A stretch of 59,817 nt of DNA, taken from positions 1-59,817 of the forward strand of contig JBHJOQ010000061.1 of NCBI GenBank assembly GCA_050329555.1, read 5' to 3'. A program made the translations under genes and the position numbers. The DNA is from Acidimicrobiia bacterium (GTDB lineage Bacteria > Actinomycetota > Acidimicrobiia > Spongiisociales > ZC4RG35). The notes beneath the pieces are model-generated. The model saw only the letters and a list, made by a program, of their open reading frames with translations. It did not search any database and was not told the origin of the DNA. Shown piece by piece: positions 28 to 23,680 of the stretch (position 1 is its first letter; every line of letters starts with the position of its first letter).

Positions 28-60
28 AAGCCGTGTGCGGGCAAACCGCACGCACGGATT
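28..60 (+). mobile_element. Group II intron domain V-like hairpin (3' end of an intron truncated by the window edge?)
   Basis: The 33-nt sequence AAGCCGUGUGCGGGCAAACCGCACGCACGGAUU folds into a two-part helix. It has an AGC triad at the 5' base (29-31), a 2-nt AC bulge on the 3' strand (50-51) and a GCAA(A) GNRA-like loop. Length and layout match my memory of the domain V consensus (GAGCCGUAUGCGAUGAAAGUCGCACGUACGGUUC). A second long GC hairpin (72..106) follows where domain VI would lie. There is no covariance-model check. Confidence 0.4.
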
Positions 61-115
61 GAAAGGAGAACGGGGAAACGTGCCCGCACCGCGGGAAGCG
101 CGCCCCTGACTACCA

Positions 116-1309
116 ATGCCAGACGGCTCTGACGACCTCCAAACCTTGATCGGCCCCGATCGACGGCGATTGAAGCTGCCCGGCTGGCAAGCAATTGCGG
201 TAATTTTGATGATCCTCTTCGTCGGGGTCGGCCTGGTGGTGCTGGTGCCTAAGCAGGCTCCCGACGTCGATCTCACCGCCCTAGGTTTTGCCGACGAGGC
301 GGTCCCGGCAACGGTTGAATCCGTCGCCAATGAGCCGTGCAGTTACTCGGCTGACCTCGTGTGTTATCAGGTGGCTTTCGACCTGGGGGATGGTGGTGGG
401 CCGATAGTTCAGGAATTCTCCGAAGGCGAGGGCCAGCCCGTCTTCGACGTCGGGGACGCAGTGTTCGTCAACGTCACCGAGTTTGATGACGGGTCGGTCT
501 CCTATCAATACGCCGATCGCGACAGACGTGCCCTGGTCGCCGGGGTTGTGTTGCTCTTTGCCCTTGCGGTTGTCGCCCTGGCGCGCACTCGCGGGCTGTT
601 GGCGCTCTTCGGGCTAACCGCCAGTGTCATCGTGCTCTTGCTTTTCATCGTTCCGGCGATCGTCGCCGGCCGCGACGCGGTGTTGGTTGCCCTTGTCGGC
701 GGCGGCGCCATCGCATTGATCTCTCTCTATGTGACCCATGGCCCGAACCCGCTGACACACGTGGCAGCCATTGGAGCGTTCGGAGCATTGGGGATAACTG
801 TGGCTCTCTCCTGGATCGTGCTGTTGCTGGCCCGCTTCTCCGGTTTCGCCGGCGAAGAGTCTTTCTACCTGACGGCCGTGCCGGGGATCGACCTCAGCGG
901 CCTGCTCCTCGCCGGAATCGTCCTGGGGACAATCGGCGCTCTCGACGATGTAACCGTCACTCAGGCGTCAACGGTGTGGGAAGTGCGGTCCGCCAATGAG
1001 CGACTCGGATCTGCGGAATTGTTTGCAGCCGGCCTCAGGGTGGGACGGGACCACATTGCCTCAACGGTGAACACATTGCTCCTTGCGTATGCCGGGGCAG
1101 CGATGCCGTTGCTCATCCTGTTCAGCCTGTCCGGGATGAGACAGGGCTTCGTGGTGAGCTCGGAGGTAGTCGCCGTGGAGATCGTCCGCACCCTCGTCGG
1201 ATCGATCGGCCTGGTGGCAGCCGTTCCACTGACGACCTTCCTCGCGGCGAGGACGGCCATATCGCACCCGGGCCGAGGCCGGGTCAGCGAAGCAGGAATC
1301 CCAGGCTGA
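116..1309 (+). CDS. YibE/F family integral membrane protein
   Basis: 397-aa polytopic membrane ORF. It has an N-terminal TM segment plus an extracytoplasmic domain, then multiple TM helices. The motifs GALDDVTVTQASTVWEV and NTLLLAYAGAAMPLLIL are typical of YibE/F proteins. Confidence 0.6.
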   Translation: MPDGSDDLQTLIGPDRRRLKLPGWQAIAVILMILFVGVGLVVLVPKQAPDVDLTALGFADEAVPATVESVANEPCSYSADLVCYQVAFDLGDGGGPIVQEFSEGEGQPVFDVGDAVFVNVTEFDDGSVSYQYADRDRRALVAGVVLLFALAVVALARTRGLLALFGLTASVIVLLLFIVPAIVAGRDAVLVALVGGGAIALISLYVTHGPNPLTHVAAIGAFGALGITVALSWIVLLLARFSGFAGEESFYLTAVPGIDLSGLLLAGIVLGTIGALDDVTVTQASTVWEVRSANERLGSAELFAAGLRVGRDHIASTVNTLLLAYAGAAMPLLILFSLSGMRQGFVVSSEVVAVEIVRTLVGSIGLVAAVPLTTFLAARTAISHPGRGRVSEAGIPG

Positions 1310-9439: not shown

Positions 9440-9815
9440 GAGCGAGTCGATTGGACGGCCGCGGCTCCGCTTGGCGGAGGCGAGGAAAGTCCGGACTCCA
9501 CAGGGCACGGTGCTGGGTAACTCCCAGGCGGGGCAACCCGACGGAAAGTGCAGCAGAAAACAAACCGCCGAAGGTCTTCGGACACAGGCAAGGGTGAAAA
9601 GGTGGTGTAAGAGACCACCAGTGCCCCGGGCGACCGGGGCAGCTTGTAAACCCCACCGGGAGCAAGGCCAAGCAGGGATCAACGGCCCGTTGAATATCCC
9701 GGGTAGGCCGCTCGAGCGGACTGGAGACAGTTCGCCTAGATGGATGGTCGTCGTGTCGGGCCGGCGTAGCTGGGCTCGACAGTTCACAGAATCCGGCTTA
9801 CAGATCGACTCGCAG
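9440..9815 (+). ncRNA. rnpB: RNase P RNA, bacterial type A
   Basis: P1 pairing GCGAGUCGAU (9442-9451) with AUCGACUCGC (9804-9813). Universally conserved GAGGAAAGUCCGG (about 9482-9494), the AGGGUGAAA...GGUGUAAGAGACC region, and the 3' ACAGAAUCCGGCUUA block (9786-9800). Confidence 0.9.
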
Positions 9816-9818
9816 TGT

Positions 9819-9846
9819 GCAGAGGACCCCGAGAGGGGTCTTCTGC
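9819..9846 (+). terminator. Strong hairpin immediately 3' of rnpB (processing/termination signal)
   Basis: GCAGAGGACCCC-GAGA-GGGGUCUUCUGC: a 12-bp stem (one G-U) with a GNRA-type loop. There is no clear U-tract. Confidence 0.4.
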
Positions 9847-9964
9847 GCGTTCACCGGGGAAATCCGCGCCGCTGGACGACTTCCGACATAGCCTGAGCCT
9901 GTTTGGAAACCTTTCGGTCGGCCGAAGGGTCAGAGGTCTGGCTCGATTAAAGGAGGAGCTTGTC

Positions 9965-10612
9965 TTGGTTATCAACAAATATCTGGCTGAATTCTTGGGG
10001 ACCCTGATCCTCGTTTTCGGAGGCTCGATGGGAATCCTCGCAGTCGGTGGGGCAACAGGGGCGGCGGAGATCATTGCAATCTCATTGGCTTTCGGGCTGG
10101 CGCTGCTGGCCGGGATCTGGGCCGTGGGACATATCTCCGGTGCGCACTTCAATCCTGCGGTGACCCTGGGGATGCTCCTCGACAAGCGGATCTCATTGAG
10201 CGACTCGATCGGGTACTGGGTGGCCCAATTCGCCGGCGCCGCGGTGGGATCACTGATCGTGGCCGGTGCGTCCAGCACCGACGTCGTTGCCGCAACAAGG
10301 ACAGGGTTCGGAGACTTGAGCACGGGCATTCTGATGGAGATCGCGCTTACCGCCATCTTCGTTTGGGTGGTTATGGCAGCGGTCCGCTCCGGTGGCACGG
10401 CTGCCCCGGGGGCGATCGCCCTCACCCTCGTCGGAGTCCACCTCGCCGGAATCCCGTTCTCGGGGGCTTCGGTCAATCCGGCCCGCTCGTTCGGTCCGGC
10501 TGTCGTTTCGGGGGATTTCACCGACCTCTGGGTCTACCTGGTGTTCCCGTTCGTCGGTGCACTTGTCGCCTACGGCTTATATCGGTTGTTCCCGGTAGCA
10601 GAAGAGATCTGA
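9965..10612 (+). CDS. MIP-family channel (aquaporin / aquaglyceroporin)
   Basis: Two NPA boxes (HFNPAVTLG and SVNPARSFG) and six TM segments. Start placed at the TTG at 9965, 6-7 nt after an AAGGAGGA RBS. The 50 upstream codons of the track ORF are non-membrane and overlap the rnpB terminator. Confidence 0.85.
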   Translation: MVINKYLAEFLGTLILVFGGSMGILAVGGATGAAEIIAISLAFGLALLAGIWAVGHISGAHFNPAVTLGMLLDKRISLSDSIGYWVAQFAGAAVGSLIVAGASSTDVVAATRTGFGDLSTGILMEIALTAIFVWVVMAAVRSGGTAAPGAIALTLVGVHLAGIPFSGASVNPARSFGPAVVSGDFTDLWVYLVFPFVGALVAYGLYRLFPVAEEI

Positions 10613-11201: not shown

Positions 11202-11804
11202 ATGAAAAGGTCGGTTGTCCTCTGTCTTATGGTGCTGATGGCGTCGGCTTGTGGCGGTGATTCTGCGACGACCACGTCGGAGGCCGACCTCGGTGAGACG
11301 ACCGTCGACACCCCTAACGCCACCTCACCTCCCGGGGCCGGTGAGACCACAACCAGCCTGGGGGAGTCGTCAACGACTTCGGACCGTGATCTCGCTCCTG
11401 ACTTCACGCTGGAACTGGGAGACGGCGGCAGTTACACCCTCTCCGATGGAGCACGACCGGTATACCTCGTTTTTTGGGCCGAGTGGTGACCGACCTGTCG
11501 ACGGGAGTTGCCCGTCGTCGACCAACTTGCCGCTGAGTACGCCGACAGGGTCGATTTCGTCGCCCCGGCGTGGAAGTCGAGCTTCGAACTGACCGAGGCG
11601 AGGGCAGAGGAGCTGTTTCTCTCCGGTGAGATCAAGTGGGGCCTCGACGCAGATGAGGAGATATTCGGCCTCTACGGGGTTCCGTACCAGCCGGTGACCG
11701 TGCTGATCGCAGCCGACCGCACAGTTGTGGTTGCTTGGCCCGGGATCAGGGCGGAAGACGAGATCAGAGAGGCGCTGGAGAACCTCATCGCACTGACCGA
11801 ATAG
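11202..11804 (+). CDS. TlpA/ResA-like thioredoxin-fold lipoprotein with an in-frame TGA at the first CxxC position (candidate Sec-containing UxxC redoxin; alternatively a nonsense pseudogene)
   Basis: Track ORFs 11202..11489 and 11508..11804 are in the same frame, interrupted only by the TGA at 11487..11489. The joined product reads lipobox LMASAC-GG ... PVYLVFWAEW[TGA]PTCRRELPVVDQL ... YGVPYQPVTVLI. That is a complete TlpA-like fold with a W-x-P-T-C active site and a cis-Pro loop. Confidence 0.6.
11496..11520 (+). promoter_or_regulatory. SECIS-like stem-loop downstream of the in-frame UGA
   Basis: Perfect 7-bp GC-rich stem CGACGGG (11499-11505) / CCCGUCG (11511-11517) with apical loop AGUUG, which contains G-U. 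Possible extension pairs are G11497-C11519 and U11496-G11520. The stem starts 9 nt after the UGA and the loop lies 17-21 nt downstream. Confidence 0.4.
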
Positions 11805-13746: not shown

Positions 13747-14346
13747 TTAATCGTCGGGCTGCTGCTGGGTGTCCCCGGTGATCTGCTGGCCGGGCACATT
13801 TCCGGCGAGGATCGTGTCCAGAGTGGCCCCTAGTACGAAGGCGTCCGCCTCGCCGATGATCTTGCCGACGACTGTGCCGGAGTCGTCGATGAAGAAAGTC
13901 TCCGGGATCCCGAATACCCCGTAGGCGATCGCTGCCCTGCTCCCCGGGTCGTGAAGGTAAAGGGTCGAAGCAGACCGCCCAGCCTGGTCGAGATACGCGG
14001 CGGAGGCTCCGGCACTCTCCTGGTAAGAGATCTGCACGAAGCGCACCCCCCGGTCGGCAAAGGCGTCAGCTGTGGCGACGAGGTCGGCGTGCTCGTTCCT
14101 GCATTCGAGACACCACGATGCGAAGAAGTTGACGACGGTGATCGTGCCGTTCAGGTCGGTCGTATCGAAGGTTCCCGAACTATCGAGGAGCGGGAGATCG
14201 AGGGCAGGAGCCGGCTTCCCGAGGAGAGGTGACTCGACAAGTCCGGGATCGATCCCGAACCGGCTGGCGAGGACAACTGAGAGGATCACCGCTGCGCCAG
14301 CTATGGCAAGGCCGGCCCACTTCACTGCGTTGCCTCTCATTGGCAC
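13747..14346 (-). CDS. ccmG: Thiol:disulfide oxidoreductase CcmG/DsbE (TlpA family)
   Basis: N-terminal TM anchor, FFASWCLECRNEH active site, and YGVFGIPETFFID. Last gene of the ccm string. An alternative ATG at 14340 forms an ATGA overlap with the ccmH stop. Confidence 0.75.
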   Translation of the reverse strand: MPMRGNAVKWAGLAIAGAAVILSVVLASRFGIDPGLVESPLLGKPAPALDLPLLDSSGTFDTTDLNGTITVVNFFASWCLECRNEHADLVATADAFADRGVRFVQISYQESAGASAAYLDQAGRSASTLYLHDPGSRAAIAYGVFGIPETFFIDDSGTVVGKIIGEADAFVLGATLDTILAGNVPGQQITGDTQQQPDD

Positions 14347-15347
14347 GGCTCCCCGGCTGAAGCCAGGGCGAGGTCGGACTCGACGAGTGATCGCGTGTCA
14401 CCTTCGAGCTCGCGGTCGCCGAGAACCTGCTCGAAGAGTTCCACAGCCCTTCCGTTCTCGCCGGCCCCGCACCACAGCACCTGGCCTTTCAGATAGAGCG
14501 CCCCCGGCAACCCCGGGCTGATCTGCAAGGCCTCGTCGAGGAGGGTGATTGCAGTGTCCACCTCGCCGTTGCCGTCATATGCCATCCAACCCAGCCGGAC
14601 CAGCGCGGTGGTCGCCTCGTTGTCGGTAGACGACACGTCTTGGGCGACTTGGAGATAGTGGGGGAAAGCAGAGCGGTAGTCGCCCGTTGCGAAGTATCGC
14701 TCGGCGAGGGCCAGCCGCATAGCGTTGATCTGGGGATTGTCCAGGTTCGCTGCGACAACAGCTTCCATGGTCTCGTTGCTGACGTCGTCGAGGTCCTCGA
14801 CGGCGACGTCAGCGGCACCTTCGTTCGGGCCGGCCCGATCCTGGAGGAGCGTGGCGGCAACCAGCACAATCGCGCCGAAGCCGCCGATAAGGATGAGCCC
14901 TCCCACCAGGCGCCTGGTGCGGGTCGCCTGAGGACGATCGTCCGCATGGTTCCGGCCGCCGGGGTGCGACTTCCACCACAGGACCACCGCCACCCCGCCC
15001 ACAAGGGCTGCCCCCGGTGCCAGCCAGAGGAGCAATGTCGCTCCGGAAAGGGGCGGATCGAGGAGTACAGCCCCGCTGAACGAGCCAAGCAACTCGTCGA
15101 TTATCTCTTGATCGGAGGCACCCCCGGCGACCCGTTCTTCGATCAGGTCCATCATGTCCGTAGCCATCTGAGCGGGGGAGTCTCCAATGGCTTTGCCCTG
15201 GCAGACCGGGCATTTGATCGATGCCCCGAGCCGTTCCACCCTGTCGTCGGGCGACTCGTTGGTGACGACAAGGACGACCAGTGCGATCGCCATCGCCAGA
15301 GTCACCCCTGCGATGAGGAAGTTTTTCAATCGCTCAGACATCTGCAA
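14337..15347 (-). CDS. ccmH: Cytochrome c-type biogenesis protein CcmH fused to a TPR (CcmI-like) domain
   Basis: IKCPVCQGKAIGDSPAQMATDM (CcmH CxxC motif), followed by a TM segment and C-terminal TPR-like repeats (YFATGDYRSAFPHYLQV...). Confidence 0.8.
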   Translation of the reverse strand: MQMSERLKNFLIAGVTLAMAIALVVLVVTNESPDDRVERLGASIKCPVCQGKAIGDSPAQMATDMMDLIEERVAGGASDQEIIDELLGSFSGAVLLDPPLSGATLLLWLAPGAALVGGVAVVLWWKSHPGGRNHADDRPQATRTRRLVGGLILIGGFGAIVLVAATLLQDRAGPNEGAADVAVEDLDDVSNETMEAVVAANLDNPQINAMRLALAERYFATGDYRSAFPHYLQVAQDVSSTDNEATTALVRLGWMAYDGNGEVDTAITLLDEALQISPGLPGALYLKGQVLWCGAGENGRAVELFEQVLGDRELEGDTRSLVESDLALASAGEPCQ

Positions 15348-17361
15348 GAGTGCTTTCGGTCACCAGGTTCCGCTCGGAGGCCCGAGCAGCCATCGCCCAG
15401 AAACCGCCCCCGGCGGCGACCAGCCCCCCGAACCAGAGCAACCAGATCAGAGGGGAAGTGTCGAGAGACAACGTGGCGCTGATGTTGTCGAGGTCGCGAA
15501 GAGTCAGGTAGAGGTCACCTCCGGGCCGGGTGAGGACGTCGGGGGTGCTGATCCCGGAAGATTGGGACCCGTAGAAGTTGTTGGTCGGCTCCATGACCGC
15601 CACGAACTGGTTGTCCCTCAGGACGGTGACTCGGGCGCCGCGCACGATCCGCTGCGGCTCTTCGAACTGGAACGGGCCCTCGTAGACGAGCTCGTAACCT
15701 GCGAATTCGACCGACTCACCCGGCTCGAGGACGACCGTCTCGTGTAGCGCCAGATTGGCCGCAAACGCAATTCCCGCCGCCACCAGGACAACCCCGATGT
15801 GGCTCACCTGTCCCGCCCAGAACGCCGTATCACCTCCGATCACTTCGCGGAGGCCGCCGACCAGTGACATCTCGCGTCGCGCGGCGCGTCGCCCGGCATG
15901 TTCGAAGAGAAGCCCGATGATCGTGCCGGTGACGAATGTGGCTAGGACCACTGCCAGCACCACCCACCCGATCCGGCTGACGAAGAGAGCGACCGCGAGA
16001 CCCGCGCCGACTGCGACAACCACCGGCATGCGGCTCCGCCTCCAGATGATGCCGGGCGACGTGTCTCCCCATGGTGTGATCGGGCCGAAGCCCATTACGA
16101 GCAGCAGGGCGAACGTCAGGGGAACTGCAAGCCTGTTGTAGAAGGGTGCTCCCACCCCTACCTGAGTGCCGGTGAACGCCTCGACGAGAAGCGGGTAGGT
16201 CGTGCCGATCAGGACCACGAAGGCGTAGAGGGTGAGCAGGAGGTTGTTGGCGAGGAATGCACCCTCCCGGCTGATGAAGCTGTCGATGCGGGGCGCTGAG
16301 CTGACCAGGTGGGAGCGGCTGGCGAACAAGGTGAATGATCCAATCAGGACGAGGGCGAGGAATCCGAGCAGTGCAGGGCCGATGGCACTCTGGGTGAAGG
16401 AGTGGACCGAGTTGATGGTGCCCGACCGGGTGAGGAAAGTGCCGAGGATTGTCAGTGAGAAAGCGGAGATGACCAACACGAAGTTCCAGGCCTGGAGCAT
16501 GTCGCGCCGTTGTTGGACGACTGCGGAGTGGAGGAAGGCGGTGGCTACCAGCCACGGCATGAATGATGCATTTTCGACCGGATCCCATGCCCAATACCCT
16601 CCCCAGGAGAGCACCTCGTACGCCCACCACCCTCCGAGAACGATGCCGGCGGTGAGAAAGCTCCAGGCCACCAGAGTTGAACGGTGCGACCGCCGGAGCC
16701 AGACCGGCCCCGGAACGCTCAGGGCGAGAGCGCTTATCGCATAAGCGAAAGGAACCGACATCCCCACATACCCGAGGTAGAGCATCGGAGGGTGGATAGC
16801 CATCAGGATGTGATTCTGGAGCAGCGGATTCGGGCCGGCGCCCTCGAGGGGTGCGTCAATCGATGAGAAGGGCCAGGGGCTGGAAACGGCACAAGCCTGC
16901 TCAGCCGCCTGCACGCAGACCTCGAACGGGTTGGAGATGGTGATCATCAACCCGAAGAAGAACACCGAGATCACACCGAGAACCGCCAGAGCCCCCGCGC
17001 CGAGATGATCGGGCCCTTTCCGGTACTGCAGCAGGACGAACCAAGTGAACCCGGCAAGCACCAGGCCCCAGAGCACTATGGAGCCTTCGAGTGCCCCCCA
17101 GGCACTGGCAACGTTGAACGGAAATGGGGTGGTGGAGGCGTGGTGGTTGGCGACAAAGGAGATTGCGAAGTCGTTGGTCACCAGCGCCAGTTCGATGGCG
17201 AGCATCGCGATAACGGAGCCACCGAGAAGGAGCTTGGCGGGAGGCGCCAGGTCGCCGACACCGGTTGCCGACCTGGCGGTCTGCACCCCCCGGTAGGCAA
17301 GCAGGATCGCCCCGAGCAGCCCGGCGAGGATTCCTGCAGTCCCGAGGAGGGAAAGTGCCAT
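15334..17361 (-). CDS. ccmF: Cytochrome c haem lyase subunit CcmF
   Basis: 675 aa, polytopic, with the WWD motif WGGYWAWDPVENAS and conserved His residues. The start shares one nt with the ccmE stop (TGATG). Confidence 0.9.
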   Translation of the reverse strand: MALSLLGTAGILAGLLGAILLAYRGVQTARSATGVGDLAPPAKLLLGGSVIAMLAIELALVTNDFAISFVANHHASTTPFPFNVASAWGALEGSIVLWGLVLAGFTWFVLLQYRKGPDHLGAGALAVLGVISVFFFGLMITISNPFEVCVQAAEQACAVSSPWPFSSIDAPLEGAGPNPLLQNHILMAIHPPMLYLGYVGMSVPFAYAISALALSVPGPVWLRRSHRSTLVAWSFLTAGIVLGGWWAYEVLSWGGYWAWDPVENASFMPWLVATAFLHSAVVQQRRDMLQAWNFVLVISAFSLTILGTFLTRSGTINSVHSFTQSAIGPALLGFLALVLIGSFTLFASRSHLVSSAPRIDSFISREGAFLANNLLLTLYAFVVLIGTTYPLLVEAFTGTQVGVGAPFYNRLAVPLTFALLLVMGFGPITPWGDTSPGIIWRRSRMPVVVAVGAGLAVALFVSRIGWVVLAVVLATFVTGTIIGLLFEHAGRRAARREMSLVGGLREVIGGDTAFWAGQVSHIGVVLVAAGIAFAANLALHETVVLEPGESVEFAGYELVYEGPFQFEEPQRIVRGARVTVLRDNQFVAVMEPTNNFYGSQSSGISTPDVLTRPGGDLYLTLRDLDNISATLSLDTSPLIWLLWFGGLVAAGGGFWAMAARASERNLVTESTLADV

Positions 17362-17768
17362 CAGCTGCCCTCGGCCGGGGTTCCCTCTTCCGGTACGACA
17401 TAGTTCTCGTCGTGGCGGATGAGAGCATTCGTCGCGACATAGGTGTCACCTTCCCAGGCACCATCGAGGAGTACCGGGACCGTGTCGTCGAACAGGGGGG
17501 GAGGAGTGTTGACCAACCTGACCGGAATGATCTGCCCGCCATCGGAGACTTCGAAGACAAGGTCGTCACCTTCCTCGGAGAGGCTTCCCTCCACGACGGC
17601 ACCGGCCAACCTGAAGTTCTCCCCGTCGGCGAACTCGGAGCGCGCTTCGACGGCCTCGGTGGGATAGAGGTAATAAGTGAGGTTGTCTCCCAGACCGACG
17701 AGCGACATGGTGATGATGAGTGCGATGATCCCTCCGATTCCAGAAAGAACCAGAGTGCGGTGCTCCAT
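17361..17768 (-). CDS. ccmE: Haem chaperone CcmE
   Basis: N-terminal TM anchor, OB-fold region FRLAGAVVEGS, and the haem-binding motif RHDENYVVPE. Confidence 0.85.
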   Translation of the reverse strand: MEHRTLVLSGIGGIIALIITMSLVGLGDNLTYYLYPTEAVEARSEFADGENFRLAGAVVEGSLSEEGDDLVFEVSDGGQIIPVRLVNTPPPLFDDTVPVLLDGAWEGDTYVATNALIRHDENYVVPEEGTPAEGS

Positions 17769-17770
17769 GG

Positions 17771-17872
17771 CTACCGGGCCCTCTTCCAGCGCATGTGGAG
17801 ATAGGCGGCGTAACCGAGAGTGGACCCGTAGACCACCGCGTATGTCACGACGACGACGAGGGCGTCAGACAT
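17771..17872 (-). CDS. ccmD: Haem exporter protein CcmD (33-aa single-TM peptide)
   Basis: MSDALVVVVTYAVVYGSTLGYAAYLHMRWKRAR: one TM helix followed by a basic tail. It sits between ccmC and ccmE, and its ATG overlaps the ccmC stop (ATGTCTGA). It is the C-terminal part of track ORF 17771..18025. Confidence 0.45.
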   Translation of the reverse strand: MSDALVVVVTYAVVYGSTLGYAAYLHMRWKRAR

Positions 17873-18575
17873 CTTCGATCTCTTTGAGCCGGGGAGGCGA
17901 GACCGCGTCGCCCGCAGGCGCTGCTTCGGTAACCCGGGCCGCTTCGAGGCGGGCCACGTAGGTGCGCCCCATGAACAATGCCGCGTAGAGGATGGTGAAG
18001 GCGACCACGTTGACCAGCAGGGCAACCAGCATCTCAGGATCCATGGTCGAGCCGTCGGGACGGATCGACTGGGTCTGGTGGAGTGTGCGGAAGAGGTTGA
18101 CCGAGAAGTAGACGAGAGGCACCTGGATGACGGCGATGGTCCCGAGGATGGCCGATCTCCGGGCCCGAATTTCGGGATCGGAGATCGCCTTGCGCAGTGC
18201 GAGGTATCCGATGTAAACGAAGATCATCACCGCGGTGGTCGCCAGGCGGGCATCACCCCAATCCCACGCCTGGCCCCAGACCGCCTGGCCCCAGACCATC
18301 CCGCTGAAAACCCCGACGACGGCAAAGAGGACACCGATCTCTGCAGAAGCTTCCGCAGCGCGATCCCAGCGAGACTTCTTACCGATGAGGTACATGATGG
18401 AGCCGAGGGCGGTGATCCCGAAGGCGAGAAAGGCAAGCCACAGCGTCGGGACGTGGATGTAGAGCATTGCTGTGAACTCACCCTGAAGGGCATCGAGAGG
18501 TGCGGTGAATGCCAGGTAAGCGCCACCAGCCAGGGCCAGCGCGGCAATCAGGAGCGTAATCTGTACACGTCTCAT
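17865..18575 (-). CDS. ccmC: Haem exporter/haem-handling protein CcmC
   Basis: Starts MRRVQITLLIAAL (ATGA overlap with the ccmB stop). Trp-rich motif WGQAWDWGDARL and flanking His. The long N-terminal extension of track ORF 17865..19352 overlaps ccmB and is rejected. Confidence 0.85.
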   Translation of the reverse strand: MRRVQITLLIAALALAGGAYLAFTAPLDALQGEFTAMLYIHVPTLWLAFLAFGITALGSIMYLIGKKSRWDRAAEASAEIGVLFAVVGVFSGMVWGQAVWGQAWDWGDARLATTAVMIFVYIGYLALRKAISDPEIRARRSAILGTIAVIQVPLVYFSVNLFRTLHQTQSIRPDGSTMDPEMLVALLVNVVAFTILYAALFMGRTYVARLEAARVTEAAPAGDAVSPPRLKEIEDV

Positions 18576-19246
18576 CGTGACGCTTCCTCTAGCGGTCTGG
18601 AGAGCCCGACTCCTGCAACCAGCAAGACCAGGTCCGTTGTGATCAGAAGCAGAATCCAGATCAGGATACCGTTGTTCCCGGCAATAGATTCGAGCACCTG
18701 CGAGGCCCCGATGACCAGGGGAACGGCGAGGGGGGCGATCAGCAGGGATGCGAGTGCCGAGCGATTGCGGAGACCCGAGGCAACTTCGCCGGCCAGAGTG
18801 GCGAGCATCGCCAGGCCTCCTGCCGCCAGGAGGATCGCCAGTCCGGTCGGCCAGACCCAACCACCGGGGAGGCCAGGGCTGAAGAGCAGCACCATCGCGA
18901 TGAAGAGGATTCCCATGAAACCCGTGAGGAGCAAGGCCGCAGCCATCGACCTTCCGAGGAACCGGGCTGCCGGGTCGAGCCCGAGCAGCATGGTTATGTC
19001 CTTGCGCTGCTCGGTTTCGCTCACAGAGGTGCGCAAAGCAACCTGCATCCCGTAGAGGATGGCAACCCCCCAGAAGACAGCCGTGCCCACGTCTCCGACG
19101 TCGCTGACACCCGCCGGAATAGCCAGGGAGAAGATCATCAAAGCCACCACGGCAAAGGGGAGGACGATGCGGAAGGTGTCTCCGATGCGCTGCTCCACGA
19201 CCAGGTCGACCCGCATCACTTCCTTGGACTGTTGCCAGAGGCTCAC
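18572..19246 (-). CDS. ccmB: Haem exporter permease CcmB
   Basis: 224 aa with six TM segments. Positioned between ccmA and ccmC with 4-nt overlaps on both sides. Confidence 0.8.
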   Translation of the reverse strand: MSLWQQSKEVMRVDLVVEQRIGDTFRIVLPFAVVALMIFSLAIPAGVSDVGDVGTAVFWGVAILYGMQVALRTSVSETEQRKDITMLLGLDPAARFLGRSMAAALLLTGFMGILFIAMVLLFSPGLPGGWVWPTGLAILLAAGGLAMLATLAGEVASGLRNRSALASLLIAPLAVPLVIGASQVLESIAGNNGILIWILLLITTDLVLLVAGVGLSRPLEEASR

Positions 19247-19887
19247 GAAACCTGCCCCAGCCGTCCGTTTTGCAGCCGGTGCACGGCGACCAGGTCCGGG
19301 CCCAGGCCGCTTTCCTCGTGCGACACTGCAACGACCCCGCCGCCTCGTTCACGGGTGAGCCGGGCGAGTGAGTCGACGAGGCTCCCTGCCTCGGTGTCGA
19401 GACCCGAACGGGCCTCGTCGAGGAGAAGAAGTAGCGGTTTGGCGATGAGGAGCCAGGCGATCTCGGCCCGCCGTTTCATCCCGAAACTGCATCGGGCCAC
19501 GGGCCGGTCAGCAACGTTTTCCAGGCCGACCGCCGAGAGAGCCTTCGGTATCGCCACTTCGCTTCGCCCCGAGACCCGGCAGAAGTGGATGAGGTTCTCC
19601 GAGATCGTCAACTCGTCGAGGAGGGCCGGAGCATGTGTGATCAGGCCAATCGACGTCCGCACCGATCGCTCGACAACCCCGCCCAGATCCGCACCGAGGA
19701 CGGTCCCTGTGCCATGGGCGGGCCGGAGCAGGGTGGCCAGCAGACGGAGGACAGTTGTCTTCCCGCTCCCGTTGGGGCCGACGATGGCGATCGCCTCACC
19801 TGACTCCAATTGAAGGCTGACATCGGTGAGCACAGCCACACCTCCCAGCGACACTCCCACCGAATCCAACCGCATCAGTTCACTCAC
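19243..19887 (-). CDS. ccmA: Haem exporter ATP-binding protein CcmA
   Basis: Walker A GPNGSGKTT, signature-like CSFGMKRR, and Walker B LLLLDEARSGLD. GTG start at 19887 is preceded by GGGAGA 8 nt upstream; an ATG at 19875 is the alternative. Confidence 0.8.
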   Translation of the reverse strand: MSELMRLDSVGVSLGGVAVLTDVSLQLESGEAIAIVGPNGSGKTTVLRLLATLLRPAHGTGTVLGADLGGVVERSVRTSIGLITHAPALLDELTISENLIHFCRVSGRSEVAIPKALSAVGLENVADRPVARCSFGMKRRAEIAWLLIAKPLLLLLDEARSGLDTEAGSLVDSLARLTRERGGGVVAVSHEESGLGPDLVAVHRLQNGRLGQVS

Positions 19888-19918: not shown

Positions 19919-20581
19919 TCAAGTTCGCTTCCGTTGCCGGGCCGCAGAGAAGGCGGCTGCGGCGAGACCGAGGACAACCCCGGCCGCGTACCACTCCACC
20001 GGCCCGCCGGTGATCGAGAGACGGAACGGCTCGGTGCCCAACCTGATACCCGCGGCGAGGGCCAGAGCTGTCCCCATCCGGACGCCGGCGTGCCTGGGGA
20101 ACCGGCTGACAACCAACGCCCCGAGCGCCATCCCGGTGGCCGCGTAGATCTCGACGGGGTGGCGGGTGATAGAGCTGCCGGCTCCCGACCAGGCCCAGGG
20201 GAGACTTGAGGCAGTGCCGAGACATGCGTCGCGCCATAGGCACCCGAGGTGCCACCCGGCGAGCCCGAGGAGGGCTGCTGGAGCCGCCTTGTCGAGAACG
20301 GTGAGCTTTCTCCCGGTCGTCAGGTAGAGGGTTCCGACCGCGAAGAGGGCGGCGGCCGCAGTGCTGACCCCGCCCCGGACGATGATCATGTCGCCGATAT
20401 GGGTAACCGGGTTCAGCCCCTGAGCTGTCATCGCTACCAGTCGGCCCCCGAGCAAGCCGACACCAGCGGCCAGAAGCAGGTTGTCGAACAGAGAGTCGGG
20501 GTCCCGACCTGCCCAGAGCCGCACTCCGATCCACAATCCGGCGACACCGGTCAGCGCCGCCCAGAGCAGGGTGAACTCCAC
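19919..20581 (-). CDS. Prolipoprotein diacylglyceryl transferase (Lgt)-family membrane protein, short paralog
   Basis: 220 aa, polytopic, with LLGGRLV, GWHLGCLWRDACLGTASSLPWAW and RHPVEIYAA. These resemble the Lgt GR.G, C..G..LPWA and HP.QLY blocks. Confidence 0.5.
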   Translation of the reverse strand: MEFTLLWAALTGVAGLWIGVRLWAGRDPDSLFDNLLLAAGVGLLGGRLVAMTAQGLNPVTHIGDMIIVRGGVSTAAAALFAVGTLYLTTGRKLTVLDKAAPAALLGLAGWHLGCLWRDACLGTASSLPWAWSGAGSSITRHPVEIYAATGMALGALVVSRFPRHAGVRMGTALALAAGIRLGTEPFRLSITGGPVEWYAAGVVLGLAAAAFSAARQRKRT

Positions 20582-20583
20582 GG

Positions 20584-21054
20584 CTATCTATTGACGATCT
20601 CGTCGATGCCGAGCGCAAGTGCCCGTTCATCGATGACCCCGAGATGGGTGTCGACCAGTGCGCCGGTGCTGTCGAAGAAGAAAGTGATCGGGGTCCCGAA
20701 TCCCCCGTAGAAGTCCGGCACCGATCGATCGCGGTCGAAGTAGTGGGTGAAGTCGAGGCCGAATTCTGCGATGAAGTTCTTGGCGTCGGCCTGGTTGTCC
20801 TGGACGTCGACACCGATGAAGTCGATCTCGTCGCCGTAAGCGGCGTGGGCTGCGGTGAGCAGCGGCGCCTCCGACCGACAGGGCCCGCACCATGACGCCC
20901 AGACATTGACCACGGAGGGCTTATCGGATTCGGCGAGGGTGGCAGCCAGTTCCTCTCCGGTGATCGGAGGGAGGTCAGCCAGGTCCTGGCCGGCCAGTTC
21001 GGCGGAGGCACATGCCGAGAGAGCCAGCAGGATTATCGGGAAGAGCCTTCTCAT
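20584..21054 (-). CDS. TlpA-like thioredoxin-fold lipoprotein
   Basis: Start at MRRLFPIILLALSAC (lipobox). Active site VWASWCGPCRSEAP, and GFGTPITFFFD (cis-Pro loop). The track ORF's 65 upstream codons are rejected. Confidence 0.75.
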   Translation of the reverse strand: MRRLFPIILLALSACASAELAGQDLADLPPITGEELAATLAESDKPSVVNVWASWCGPCRSEAPLLTAAHAAYGDEIDFIGVDVQDNQADAKNFIAEFGLDFTHYFDRDRSVPDFYGGFGTPITFFFDSTGALVDTHLGVIDERALALGIDEIVNR

Positions 21055-21076
21055 CAGGCGATTCTCCCACCTGCGG

Positions 21077-22450
21077 TCAATAATGCTTTTGGAGATTCTC
21101 CTGCTCGGCGATGAGCTCCTCGAATCGGGCCATCTGGCGGTCGACAGCCTGGGGCGTGCCTCCGCCGGGTGTGCCCCGTCTGTCGGGGGCAGGATCGAGA
21201 ACAGCGGCAGCCTCAGGGCCAAGGGCGGGGGAATCCCGGACCAGATCATCGAACGACTGGTTTCCGGCCAGCGACTGGCTCACCAGCCCGCCCACGATGG
21301 CATGGGCTTCGCGGAACGGCCTTCCCCGGGCCACCAGCCACTCGGCGAGGTCGGTGGCGTACAGGTAGGGCGACCTGGCACCGGCGGCCATCCGTTCGAG
21401 ATCGAAGGTCAGGGTGGCGATCATCCCGTCGACCGCGGAGAGGAGGAGATGGATGGTGTCGAAGGAATCGAAAAGCGGCTCTTTGTCTTCCTGGAGGTCT
21501 TTGTTGTAGGCGAAGGGGAGGCCTTTGAGGGTGACCAACAGCCCGGTGAGGTTGCCGATCAGCCTGCCCGCCTTGCCTCGGGCCAGTTCGGCGATATCTG
21601 GGTTCGCCTTATGCGGCATCATCGAAGAGCCTGTGGAGTGGGTCTCGCCCATCCTCACGTAACCGAACTCGATGGAAGACCAAACGACCAGTTCCTCGCC
21701 GATCCGGCTCAGGTGCATCCCGAGTAGACAGAGAGCGAAGAGCGTCTCCGCCACGTAGTCGCGGTCGCTGACGGCATCGAGACTGTTCTCGAAGACCGCA
21801 CCGAAGCCGAGCTCGGCTGCTGTCAGCTCGGGATCGATGGGGAGGGTCGATCCGGCGAGCGCCCCTGCACCCAGCGGAGAGACATCGAGGCGCTTCCTGG
21901 CGTCGATGAGGCGGTCGAAGTCGCGGGCGAGCGCCCACCCGTGAGCGAGAAGGTGGTGGGCGAGGGTCACCGGTTGTGCCTGCTGGAGATGGGTGTAACC
22001 GGGGAGAATGGCCTCGCCCGCGTTCGCGGCCCTTGCGAGCAGTGTCTTCTCCAACTGATGGACGAGGGTCAGGGTGGTATCGATGGCCTTTTTGGCCCAG
22101 AGACGGAGGTCGGTCGTCACCTGGTCGTTGCGGCTCCGCCCTGTGTGCAACTTCGCCCCGGCGGGGGTGATCGCACTCACCCCCCGTTCGACGGCGGTAT
22201 GGATGTCCTCGTCGCTCTCTTCGAACTCGAACTCACCACTGGCAATCTTCGCTTCGACCGTGTCGAGGGCGGCGAGGATCTCTTCGGACTCGCCACCGGT
22301 GAGTAGGCCGACCCTGGCCAGCATCCGGGCGTGGGCACGGGACCCGGCGATATCTTCGCGAAATATGCGCACATCGAATGCCAGGCTGTCGTTGAGCGCA
22401 CGGAGATCGTCGGATGGCACGGCATCGAACCGGCCCTGCCACAGGGTCAC
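21077..22450 (-). CDS. argH: Argininosuccinate lyase
   Basis: 457 aa with TGRSRNDQV, GYTHLQQAQP and the GSSMMPHKANPD signature. Confidence 0.95.
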   Translation of the reverse strand: MTLWQGRFDAVPSDDLRALNDSLAFDVRIFREDIAGSRAHARMLARVGLLTGGESEEILAALDTVEAKIASGEFEFEESDEDIHTAVERGVSAITPAGAKLHTGRSRNDQVTTDLRLWAKKAIDTTLTLVHQLEKTLLARAANAGEAILPGYTHLQQAQPVTLAHHLLAHGWALARDFDRLIDARKRLDVSPLGAGALAGSTLPIDPELTAAELGFGAVFENSLDAVSDRDYVAETLFALCLLGMHLSRIGEELVVWSSIEFGYVRMGETHSTGSSMMPHKANPDIAELARGKAGRLIGNLTGLLVTLKGLPFAYNKDLQEDKEPLFDSFDTIHLLLSAVDGMIATLTFDLERMAAGARSPYLYATDLAEWLVARGRPFREAHAIVGGLVSQSLAGNQSFDDLVRDSPALGPEAAAVLDPAPDRRGTPGGGTPQAVDRQMARFEELIAEQENLQKHY

Positions 22451-22453
22451 GTT

Positions 22454-23676
<1,223 letters not shown>

Positions 23677-23680
<4 letters not shown>

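Follow-up and report, generated by a model that had tools for sequence, protein, structure and literature searches.

An in-frame UGA at the catalytic position of an Acidimicrobiia ResA/TlpA-type redoxin is very probably a selenocysteine codon

What is a stop codon doing at the very place where a redoxin keeps its attacking cysteine? The question is raised by a gene in a stretch of 59,817 nucleotides, here called the window (positions 1 to 59,817 of contig JBHJOQ010000061.1, assembly GCA_050329555.1, an Acidimicrobiia bacterium), where gene calling splits 11202..11804 into two open reading frames, 11202..11489 and 11508..11804, that lie in the same frame. An initial annotation, made from the letters of this DNA, had noticed that they are parted by nothing but the TGA at 11487..11489 and six sense codons, had aligned that TGA with the leading Cys of WCxxC in two paralogues of the window, had taken the joined halves for a TlpA/ResA-type redoxin and had proposed a UxxC selenoprotein. 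Translation bears out the first of these points: 11202..11804 on the forward strand is a single reading frame with one internal stop, reading MKRSVVLCLMVLMASACGG...PVYLVFWAEW*PTCRRELPVVD...LIALTE* (asterisks standing for stops), and the six sense codons are 11490..11507, between the TGA and the TTG at 11508 where the second listed ORF starts. Reassignment of UGA is not the answer; TGA is the normal stop in the window, ending 45 of its 66 long coding-like ORFs, and the genetic code is therefore standard. The answer to which the comparison of sequences points, with a probability that we put at about 0.93, is that this is a true selenoprotein gene and that its in-frame TGA is the codon for selenocysteine (Sec). 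The candidate of the initial annotation is in this respect strongly supported, by the pairing of TGA and Cys forms, by a hairpin linked to TGA and by purifying selection, each of which is taken up below. The features of the gene, as we read them, are these.

11202..11804, forward strand: the complete gene proposed to encode a selenoprotein, 200 codons, with Sec as codon 96 and a TAG stop at 11802..11804
11202..11252, forward strand: probable lipoprotein signal peptide MKRSVVLCLMVLMASAC, read from the sequence
11250..11252, forward strand: putative lipidation site Cys17, in a lipobox-like ..ASAC
11487..11489, forward strand: the UGA, proposed Sec codon (U96), position 1 of the U-P-T-C active site, matched in paralogues, in Cys-form orthologues and in homologues from the PDB by the first Cys of WCxxC
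11496..11498, forward strand: C99 (TGT), the presumptive resolving cysteine of UxxC, invariant across all TGA and Cys forms
11499..11517, forward strand: candidate bacterial SECIS hairpin, overlapping codons R100-V105
11691..11693, forward strand: conserved proline P164 in GVPYQPVTVLI, presumed to be the cis-Pro facing the active site, an invariant column in 51 homologues

To what family would the joined product belong? With Cys written at the stop, the 200 residues match Pfam Redoxin (PF08534, 47.2 bits against a gathering cut-off of 26.6) and AhpC-TSA (PF00578, 46.4 bits against 26), so that the reading of the two halves as one TlpA/ResA-type redoxin holds. The position given to the TGA is likewise upheld by alignment, its column coinciding with the first Cys of WCxxC both in ccmG (13747..14346, reverse strand, FFASWCLECR) and in the paralogue at 20584..21249 (reverse strand, VWASWCGPCR), and also with the active-site Cys of a Cys-form orthologue, P0003, and of PDB homologues; what would be a CxxC dithiol motif is U-P-T-C here (UxxC). 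P164, whose cis conformation is presumed from sequence, falls in the PDB alignments on the loop Pro of Etrx1 and of DsbE, and it also coincides with that of both window paralogues. By sequence the closest solved structures are S. pneumoniae Etrx1 (E 4e-11), Chlorobium DsbE, M. tuberculosis DsbF/DsbE and B. subtilis ResA, at E values of 4e-11 to 3e-9 and identities of 26-29%. The AlphaFold model of P0003, which is 74% identical in the domain, has a domain pLDDT above 95 and superposes on B. subtilis ResA (1st9) with a TM score of 0.91 normalised to the target and an rmsd of 1.3 A; it also matches M. tuberculosis DsbF/DsbE and Etrx1/2, the target-normalised TM scores, ResA included, ranging over 0.82-0.91. 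In that model, a thioredoxin fold that includes the ResA-type insertion, helix 1 (87-103) begins just past the active-site C86 and has the active site at its N-terminus.

Ahead of the domain, the signal peptide is followed by a low-complexity linker rich in Thr, Ser and Pro that extends to about residue 60 and has low pLDDT in the orthologue model. Hydrophobic N-termini ending ..[LVA][AS][AG]C, a loose pattern, are found in 108 of 119 homologues, and from this N-terminal pattern the protein is probably extracytoplasmic and lipid-anchored. The best explanation of the 200-residue product is one protein, an extracytoplasmic thiol-disulfide oxidoreductase of the ResA/TlpA/DsbE type. Most likely it functions as an extracytoplasmic reductase, in which Sec would bring faster thiol-disulfide exchange and more resistance to over-oxidation. 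Two more specific identities were tried and rejected. One is CcmG/DsbE proper, for which the scores are far too low (TIGR00385, 24.7 bits against a cut-off of 123; PRK15412, 25.9 against 359) and which is also countered by the separate ccmG at 13747..14346 that heads the adjacent ccmG/H/F run on the opposite strand. The other is the NCBIfam family NF041054 of 'WAxxUGC_long' ResA-like selenoproteins, whose model of 354 positions gave 20.4 bits where 300 are required and in place of whose WAxxUGC motif WAEWUPTC is read here.

Does the stop recur at this codon elsewhere? A scan of one genome per bacterial species (GTDB species representatives) gave 62 orthologous loci with the site, 50 with TGA and 12 with TGC/TGT, essentially all of them labelled as Acidimicrobiia/Actinomycetota MAGs from soil, sediment and saline-lake metagenomes. 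Adding the window and two metagenome contigs brings the TGA forms to 53, and two further Cys-form contigs bring the Cys forms to 14. Sequences with the TGA form include OZ244166.1, OZ244163.1, CAVVSY01 and JBGTCK01, and OY970200.1 is among those with the Cys form. The initial annotation had proposed to see whether relatives carry TGC/TGT, or TGA with a conserved hairpin; they carry the one or the other, in these numbers, and the hairpin is conserved in the TGA forms only. In the alignment the TGA column holds a stop in 52 other loci, C in 12-15 loci, and no other residue. A protein search tells of the same duality: it returned 71 full-length homologues with W-C-x-x-C and 48 diverse called proteins, every one of which ends exactly at ...PVYLVFWAEW and hence at the codon in question. 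No full-length entry containing U was among its best matches, and no curated NCBIfam family matched the gene. Gene callers give two ORFs at every TGA-form locus and one undivided ORF in the Cys-form orthologues, the neighbourhood common to both forms being a MIP channel, a GGACT/AIG2-like gene, the redoxin gene, DUF4440 and a PAF-AH-like hydrolase, and then ccmG-H-F-E-D-C-B-A on the opposite strand. One MAG, JAPUJM01 (isolate KW1-S11_42), has two TGA copies on different contigs (L016 1851 and L017 9074), which may be paralogues or come from co-binned strains.

Is the sequence past the stop translated, and from where? In each of the 53 TGA forms the TGA is followed by an intact frame of 102-106 codons; read in its two other frames, the downstream segment has on average 2.4 and 2.9 stops. 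Pairwise Nei-Gojobori comparison of 104 downstream codons gives a median dN of 0.22, dS of 1.43 and dN/dS of 0.156; for 33 upstream codons of the domain dN/dS is 0.097. In the P-T-C codons directly past the TGA the third positions vary and the first and second are fixed. Because of the intact frames, the low dN/dS and this third-position variation, the post-stop sequence must be taken as translated in frame from the stop itself, and therefore a pseudogene or sequencing error is excluded and a gene split at the TTG strongly disfavoured. That both halves are family-typical had been held against long-standing pseudogenisation, and the downstream dN/dS of 0.16 and the intact frames bear this out. 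Degraded copies in relatives, named by the initial annotation as something that would refute its reading, were not found, there being no further stop and no frameshift in the copy of any relative among the 53 TGA forms.

What might let a ribosome pass this one UGA? Directly downstream lies the hairpin CGACGGG-AGUUG-CCCGUCG (11499..11517), with a conserved core of 6 bp (11500..11505 paired with 11511..11516) and the apical loop AGUUG (11506..11510). Counted from the U of the UGA, the core is +13..+18 with +24..+29 in the consensus of the 53 TGA forms, and the spacing from UGA to loop is 16 nt. In the window its MFE is -11.6 kcal/mol for the 19-nt hairpin and -13.9 for 27 nt (11496..11522). Taken alone, the window hairpin is unexceptional for GC-rich coding sequence (the single-sequence fold of the 62 nt 11484..11545 has z = 0 against shuffles), and therefore the structure was judged by comparison. 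All six core pairs are present in 51 of the 53 TGA forms versus 0 of the 14 Cys forms, where the mean is 3.3 pairs; the loop AGUUG is present in 52 of 53 versus 2 of 14; and the mean MFE of the 27-nt segment is -11.7 kcal/mol (TGA) versus -6.4 (Cys). Compensatory double changes, for which L001, L027 and L034 give examples, are seen at two pairs, one passing from G-C to A-U (four sequences) or U-A (one) and the second to A-U (three sequences), and one stem pair alternates between A-U and G-U in 13 sequences; the covariation score and the number of double-change cells were reached by 0 of 500 shuffles. Within the TGA forms four synonymous sites (+17, +20, +23, +26) are frozen, as is base 1 of the Leu codon (+21), all at 92-100%; in the Cys forms this stretch is likewise R-[RK]-E-L-P, and its codons vary. 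Of the 49 occurrences of the 11-mer GGGAGTTGCCC in the 1.1 Mb of DNA fetched, 48 are at the UGA-hairpin site. No argument in the case is stronger than this link between hairpin and TGA.

Does such a small hairpin qualify as a bacterial SECIS element? The published bSECIS model has a loop of 3-9 nt and an upper stem of 4-16 bp, a G at loop position 1 or 2 with G or U after it, a distance of 16-37 nt from the UGA and an MFE of at most -7.5 kcal/mol (PMC13188914), and the hairpin satisfies all of these constraints with its 5-nt loop AGUUG, stem of 6-7 bp, distance of 16 nt and MFE of -11.6 to -13.9. Of the model check that had been suggested for this segment, the part concerning published constraints came out positive; the part concerning covariance models came out negative, with no match to a SECIS family of Rfam at gathering or permissive thresholds, as is to be expected since bacterial SECIS elements are poorly represented there. 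The claim of conservation is for the 6-bp core only. The outer pairs U+9/G+33 and G+10/C+32 were rejected, being unpaired in 14 and 18 of 52 sequences, as was C+12/G+30, which is poorly conserved. A sub-threshold Rfam match to 'hya RNA' on the opposite strand (E 4.9) was put down to chance.

And where is the machinery for Sec? None had been seen in the window, and that stands: neither the window nor any of the 69 fetched loci gives a tRNA gene by ARAGORN or a tblastn match to the SelA, SelB or SelD of E. coli, and Rfam at the gathering threshold found only RNase P RNA in the window. The search covered the 60-kb window and about 1.1 Mb of flanks, that is ~20 kb per genome, about 10 kb to each side. 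In another order of Acidimicrobiia, Actinomarinales, selA, selB, selC and selD are present in all complete genomes (bioRxiv 10.64898/2026.04.03.716425). A crude screen of window and flanks for a second selenoprotein gene with an in-frame TGA gave no convincing candidate; recurrent stop columns elsewhere proved to be ordinary stops of adjacent in-frame genes, e.g. argG/argH at 22456.

Could the UGA then be recoded without Sec, the hairpin stimulating a near-cognate or suppressor tRNA to insert Trp, Cys or some other residue in genomes that have no Sec pathway? Such a proposal sits well with the lack of Sec machinery in the window and in the ~20 kb of each fetched locus, and the base after the UGA (11490 in the window) also suits it, being C in 47 of the 53 forms, A in 5 and G in 1, as UGA-C is regarded as a weak terminator in E. 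coli; that it is mostly C follows from the Pro codon coming next. However, the codon alternates with TGC/TGT and with nothing else, at the position of the catalytic nucleophile where Trp would inactivate the enzyme, every bSECIS constraint is satisfied, including the spacing and the early G-U of the loop, selABCD are present in other Acidimicrobiia, and we know of no comparable SelB-independent, hairpin-driven decoding of UGA in bacteria. Non-Sec recoding must on this balance be called most unlikely, and we give equally little credence to its fullest form, in which the TGA-form genomes would be devoid of selA, selB, selC and selD and the 17-nt hairpin would itself drive SelB-independent recoding at the catalytic Cys position. 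Were that true, it would be a new bacterial recoding mechanism. A selenoprotein that is ancient, exported as a lipoprotein and spread over the whole clade, with a minimal SECIS served by a divergent Acidimicrobiia SelB, is more likely than SelB-independent recoding.

Two simpler ways of doing without recoding are to be weighed with it. The gene might be 'really' split, into a 95-residue lipoprotein stub ending at W95 and a C-terminal fragment begun at TTG 11508 or nearby, the two reassembling or acting independently, and two ORFs are indeed predicted at every TGA-form locus and a TTG does stand at 11508 in the window. But the six codons from TGA to TTG are conserved as P-T-C-R-R-E, with the Cys invariant and the third positions of P, T and C free, which would not be expected of an untranslated spacer, the second fragment would be without a signal peptide and without the attacking nucleophile, and the Cys-form orthologues, in the same synteny, are undivided; a split gene is scarcely credible. 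As for a nonsense mutation or a miscalled base in what would be a CxxC redoxin gene, TGA is one base from TGC or TGT and the two intact window paralogues could cover the loss. Yet 53 independent assemblies, from metagenomes of soil, sediment and saline lakes, have this same TGA, secondary stops and frameshifts are absent, the downstream dN/dS is 0.16 at saturated dS and the hairpin is co-conserved, so that the chance left to a pseudogene or sequencing error is close to nil; in practice the comparative sequence data already refute it.

Returning to the selenoprotein, how would it be made and what would it do? A ribosome would arrive at the UGA at 11487..11489, and the hairpin 16 nt downstream (core 11500..11516, loop AGUUG) would, by analogy with known elements, bind SelB carrying Sec-tRNA(Sec). 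Delivery of Sec by SelB would compete with release factor 2, and where it succeeds translation would run on to the TAG at 11802. The signal peptide would direct export and Cys17 would be lipidated, with the linker rich in Thr, Ser and Pro keeping the redoxin domain outside the membrane. There U96 would attack substrate disulfides (or sulfenates) to form a selenenylsulfide, to be resolved by C99, and re-reduction would presumably come from a membrane electron shuttle of the CcdA/DsbD type. These steps, from SelB-dependent decoding through export and lipidation to the direction of electron flow and the kind of substrate, we infer from the standard bacterial Sec pathway and thioredoxin-fold chemistry.

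How far is this a known kind of protein? That a thioredoxin-fold selenoprotein may have UxxC is already a textbook case, and no concept is changed by another one. Kryukov and Gladyshev reportedly predicted families of UxxC thiol-disulfide oxidoreductase selenoproteins in 2004. Geobacter and Syntrophus supplied the prototypes of the UxxC selenoproteins termed 'Prx-like thiol:disulfide oxidoreductase' and 'thiol:disulfide interchange protein', and high-confidence predictions of UxxC thioredoxin-fold selenoproteins go back to 2004, most of them from Deltaproteobacteria and Clostridia (PMC13188914, PMC1794560). The window protein shares with them a thioredoxin-fold AhpC-TSA/Redoxin domain, Sec in place of the first Cys of CxxC, a candidate SECIS in the coding region just past the UGA and the common occurrence of Cys-form homologues; of what marks the Prx-like family, a PF00578 domain, a UxxC (or UxxU) motif and orthology to the Geobacter prototype WP_010940744.1, the domain and the motif are seen in this candidate. 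It differs from those of Deltaproteobacteria and Clostridia in belonging to Acidimicrobiia (Actinomycetota), and also in its lipoprotein-type N-terminus and Thr/Ser-rich tether.

With ResA, DsbE (MPT53), DsbF and Etrx1/Etrx2 it has in common a site of the W-C-x-x-C type at the start of helix 1, the conserved Pro loop and a membrane-anchored or lipoprotein topology, in its own case predicted, but all of these use Cys at both positions and their identity to it is only 26-29%. Their partners, apocytochrome c for ResA and MsrAB2 for Etrx, need not be its own. Like the NF041054 family it would be a ResA/TlpA-like selenoprotein with Sec after a WAxx context; unlike that family, where the motif is U-G-C, it has U-x-x-C. 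The hairpin, for its part, resembles the E. coli fdhF-type SECIS and the bSECISearch consensus in being a coding stem-loop directly past the UGA with a small apical loop carrying G-U at 16 nt, and departs from the fdhF type in being very compact (conserved stem 6 bp, loop 5 nt, and the shortest spacing that the model allows) with no evident bulged U.

Which came first, Sec or Cys? In an approximate neighbour-joining tree of the domain (138 aa) three distant Cys forms are outermost, the deep TGA lineages L001, L057, L060 and L053 come next, one Cys clade of nine members is nested among TGA lineages, and two isolated Cys forms, L070 and L071, lie deep within TGA clades. The simplest reading, its direction depending on that approximate tree, is that Sec is old in the clade and was replaced by Cys at least three times. 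L070, which reads TGT CCG ACC TGT CGA CGG GAG TTG CCA ATC, retains an intact 5' arm and loop beside a broken 3' arm, as if Sec had recently given way to Cys and the SECIS were decaying. Remnants of this sort, with the 5' arm and/or AGUUG kept and the pairing broken, are seen in L070 (10256..10291), L071 (10139..10174) and L039 (2023..2058), and to judge from their sequences all three are natural examples of SECIS decay after replacement of Sec by Cys.

Why should one more selenoprotein matter? A widespread gene of Acidimicrobiia is systematically mis-annotated, as two short ORFs or as a truncated protein, and its recognition would add an extracytoplasmic, probably lipid-anchored selenoprotein to a class where the use of selenium has only just been reported. 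Apparently new are the Acidimicrobiia lineage, the predicted lipoprotein architecture, the compact SECIS and the very gene, missed as it was by public annotation. The protein might be one of those that keep the Sec trait alive in Acidimicrobiia of soil and sediment. Its orthologues offer a natural series of Sec forms, Cys forms and what look like recent converts from Sec to Cys with a decaying SECIS, and those who study the specificity of SelB could make use of so compact an element, 6 bp and AGUUG at 16 nt from the UGA.

The surroundings of the gene also merit a few words. The MIP-channel gene (9815..10612) is immediately preceded by an RNase P RNA of bacterial class A, at 9443..9816 on the forward strand of the window (309 bits, full length). 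A System I cytochrome c maturation cluster (13747..19352, reverse strand) adjoins the redoxin gene in all loci examined, and in the window it consists of the following.

13747..14346, reverse strand: ccmG
14337..15347, reverse strand: ccmH-TPR
15334..17361, reverse strand: ccmF
17865..19352, reverse strand: ccmC-like ORF

The third thioredoxin-fold CxxC protein, that of 20584..21249 on the reverse strand (VWASWCGPCR), is directly upstream of an Lgt-like ORF at 19919..20581, of the prolipoprotein diacylglyceryl transferase family, and argH and argG come next at 21077..23680. Not every pair of adjoining ORFs among the fetched loci calls for recoding: at 136..1175 (reverse strand) of L002 a gene of the proline racemase family appears as two ORFs (283 and 62 aa, overlapping by 1 nt), and at 31..1167 (reverse strand) of L071 the gene of this family is one ORF of 378 aa, so that the split in L002 is probably a frameshift or assembly error.
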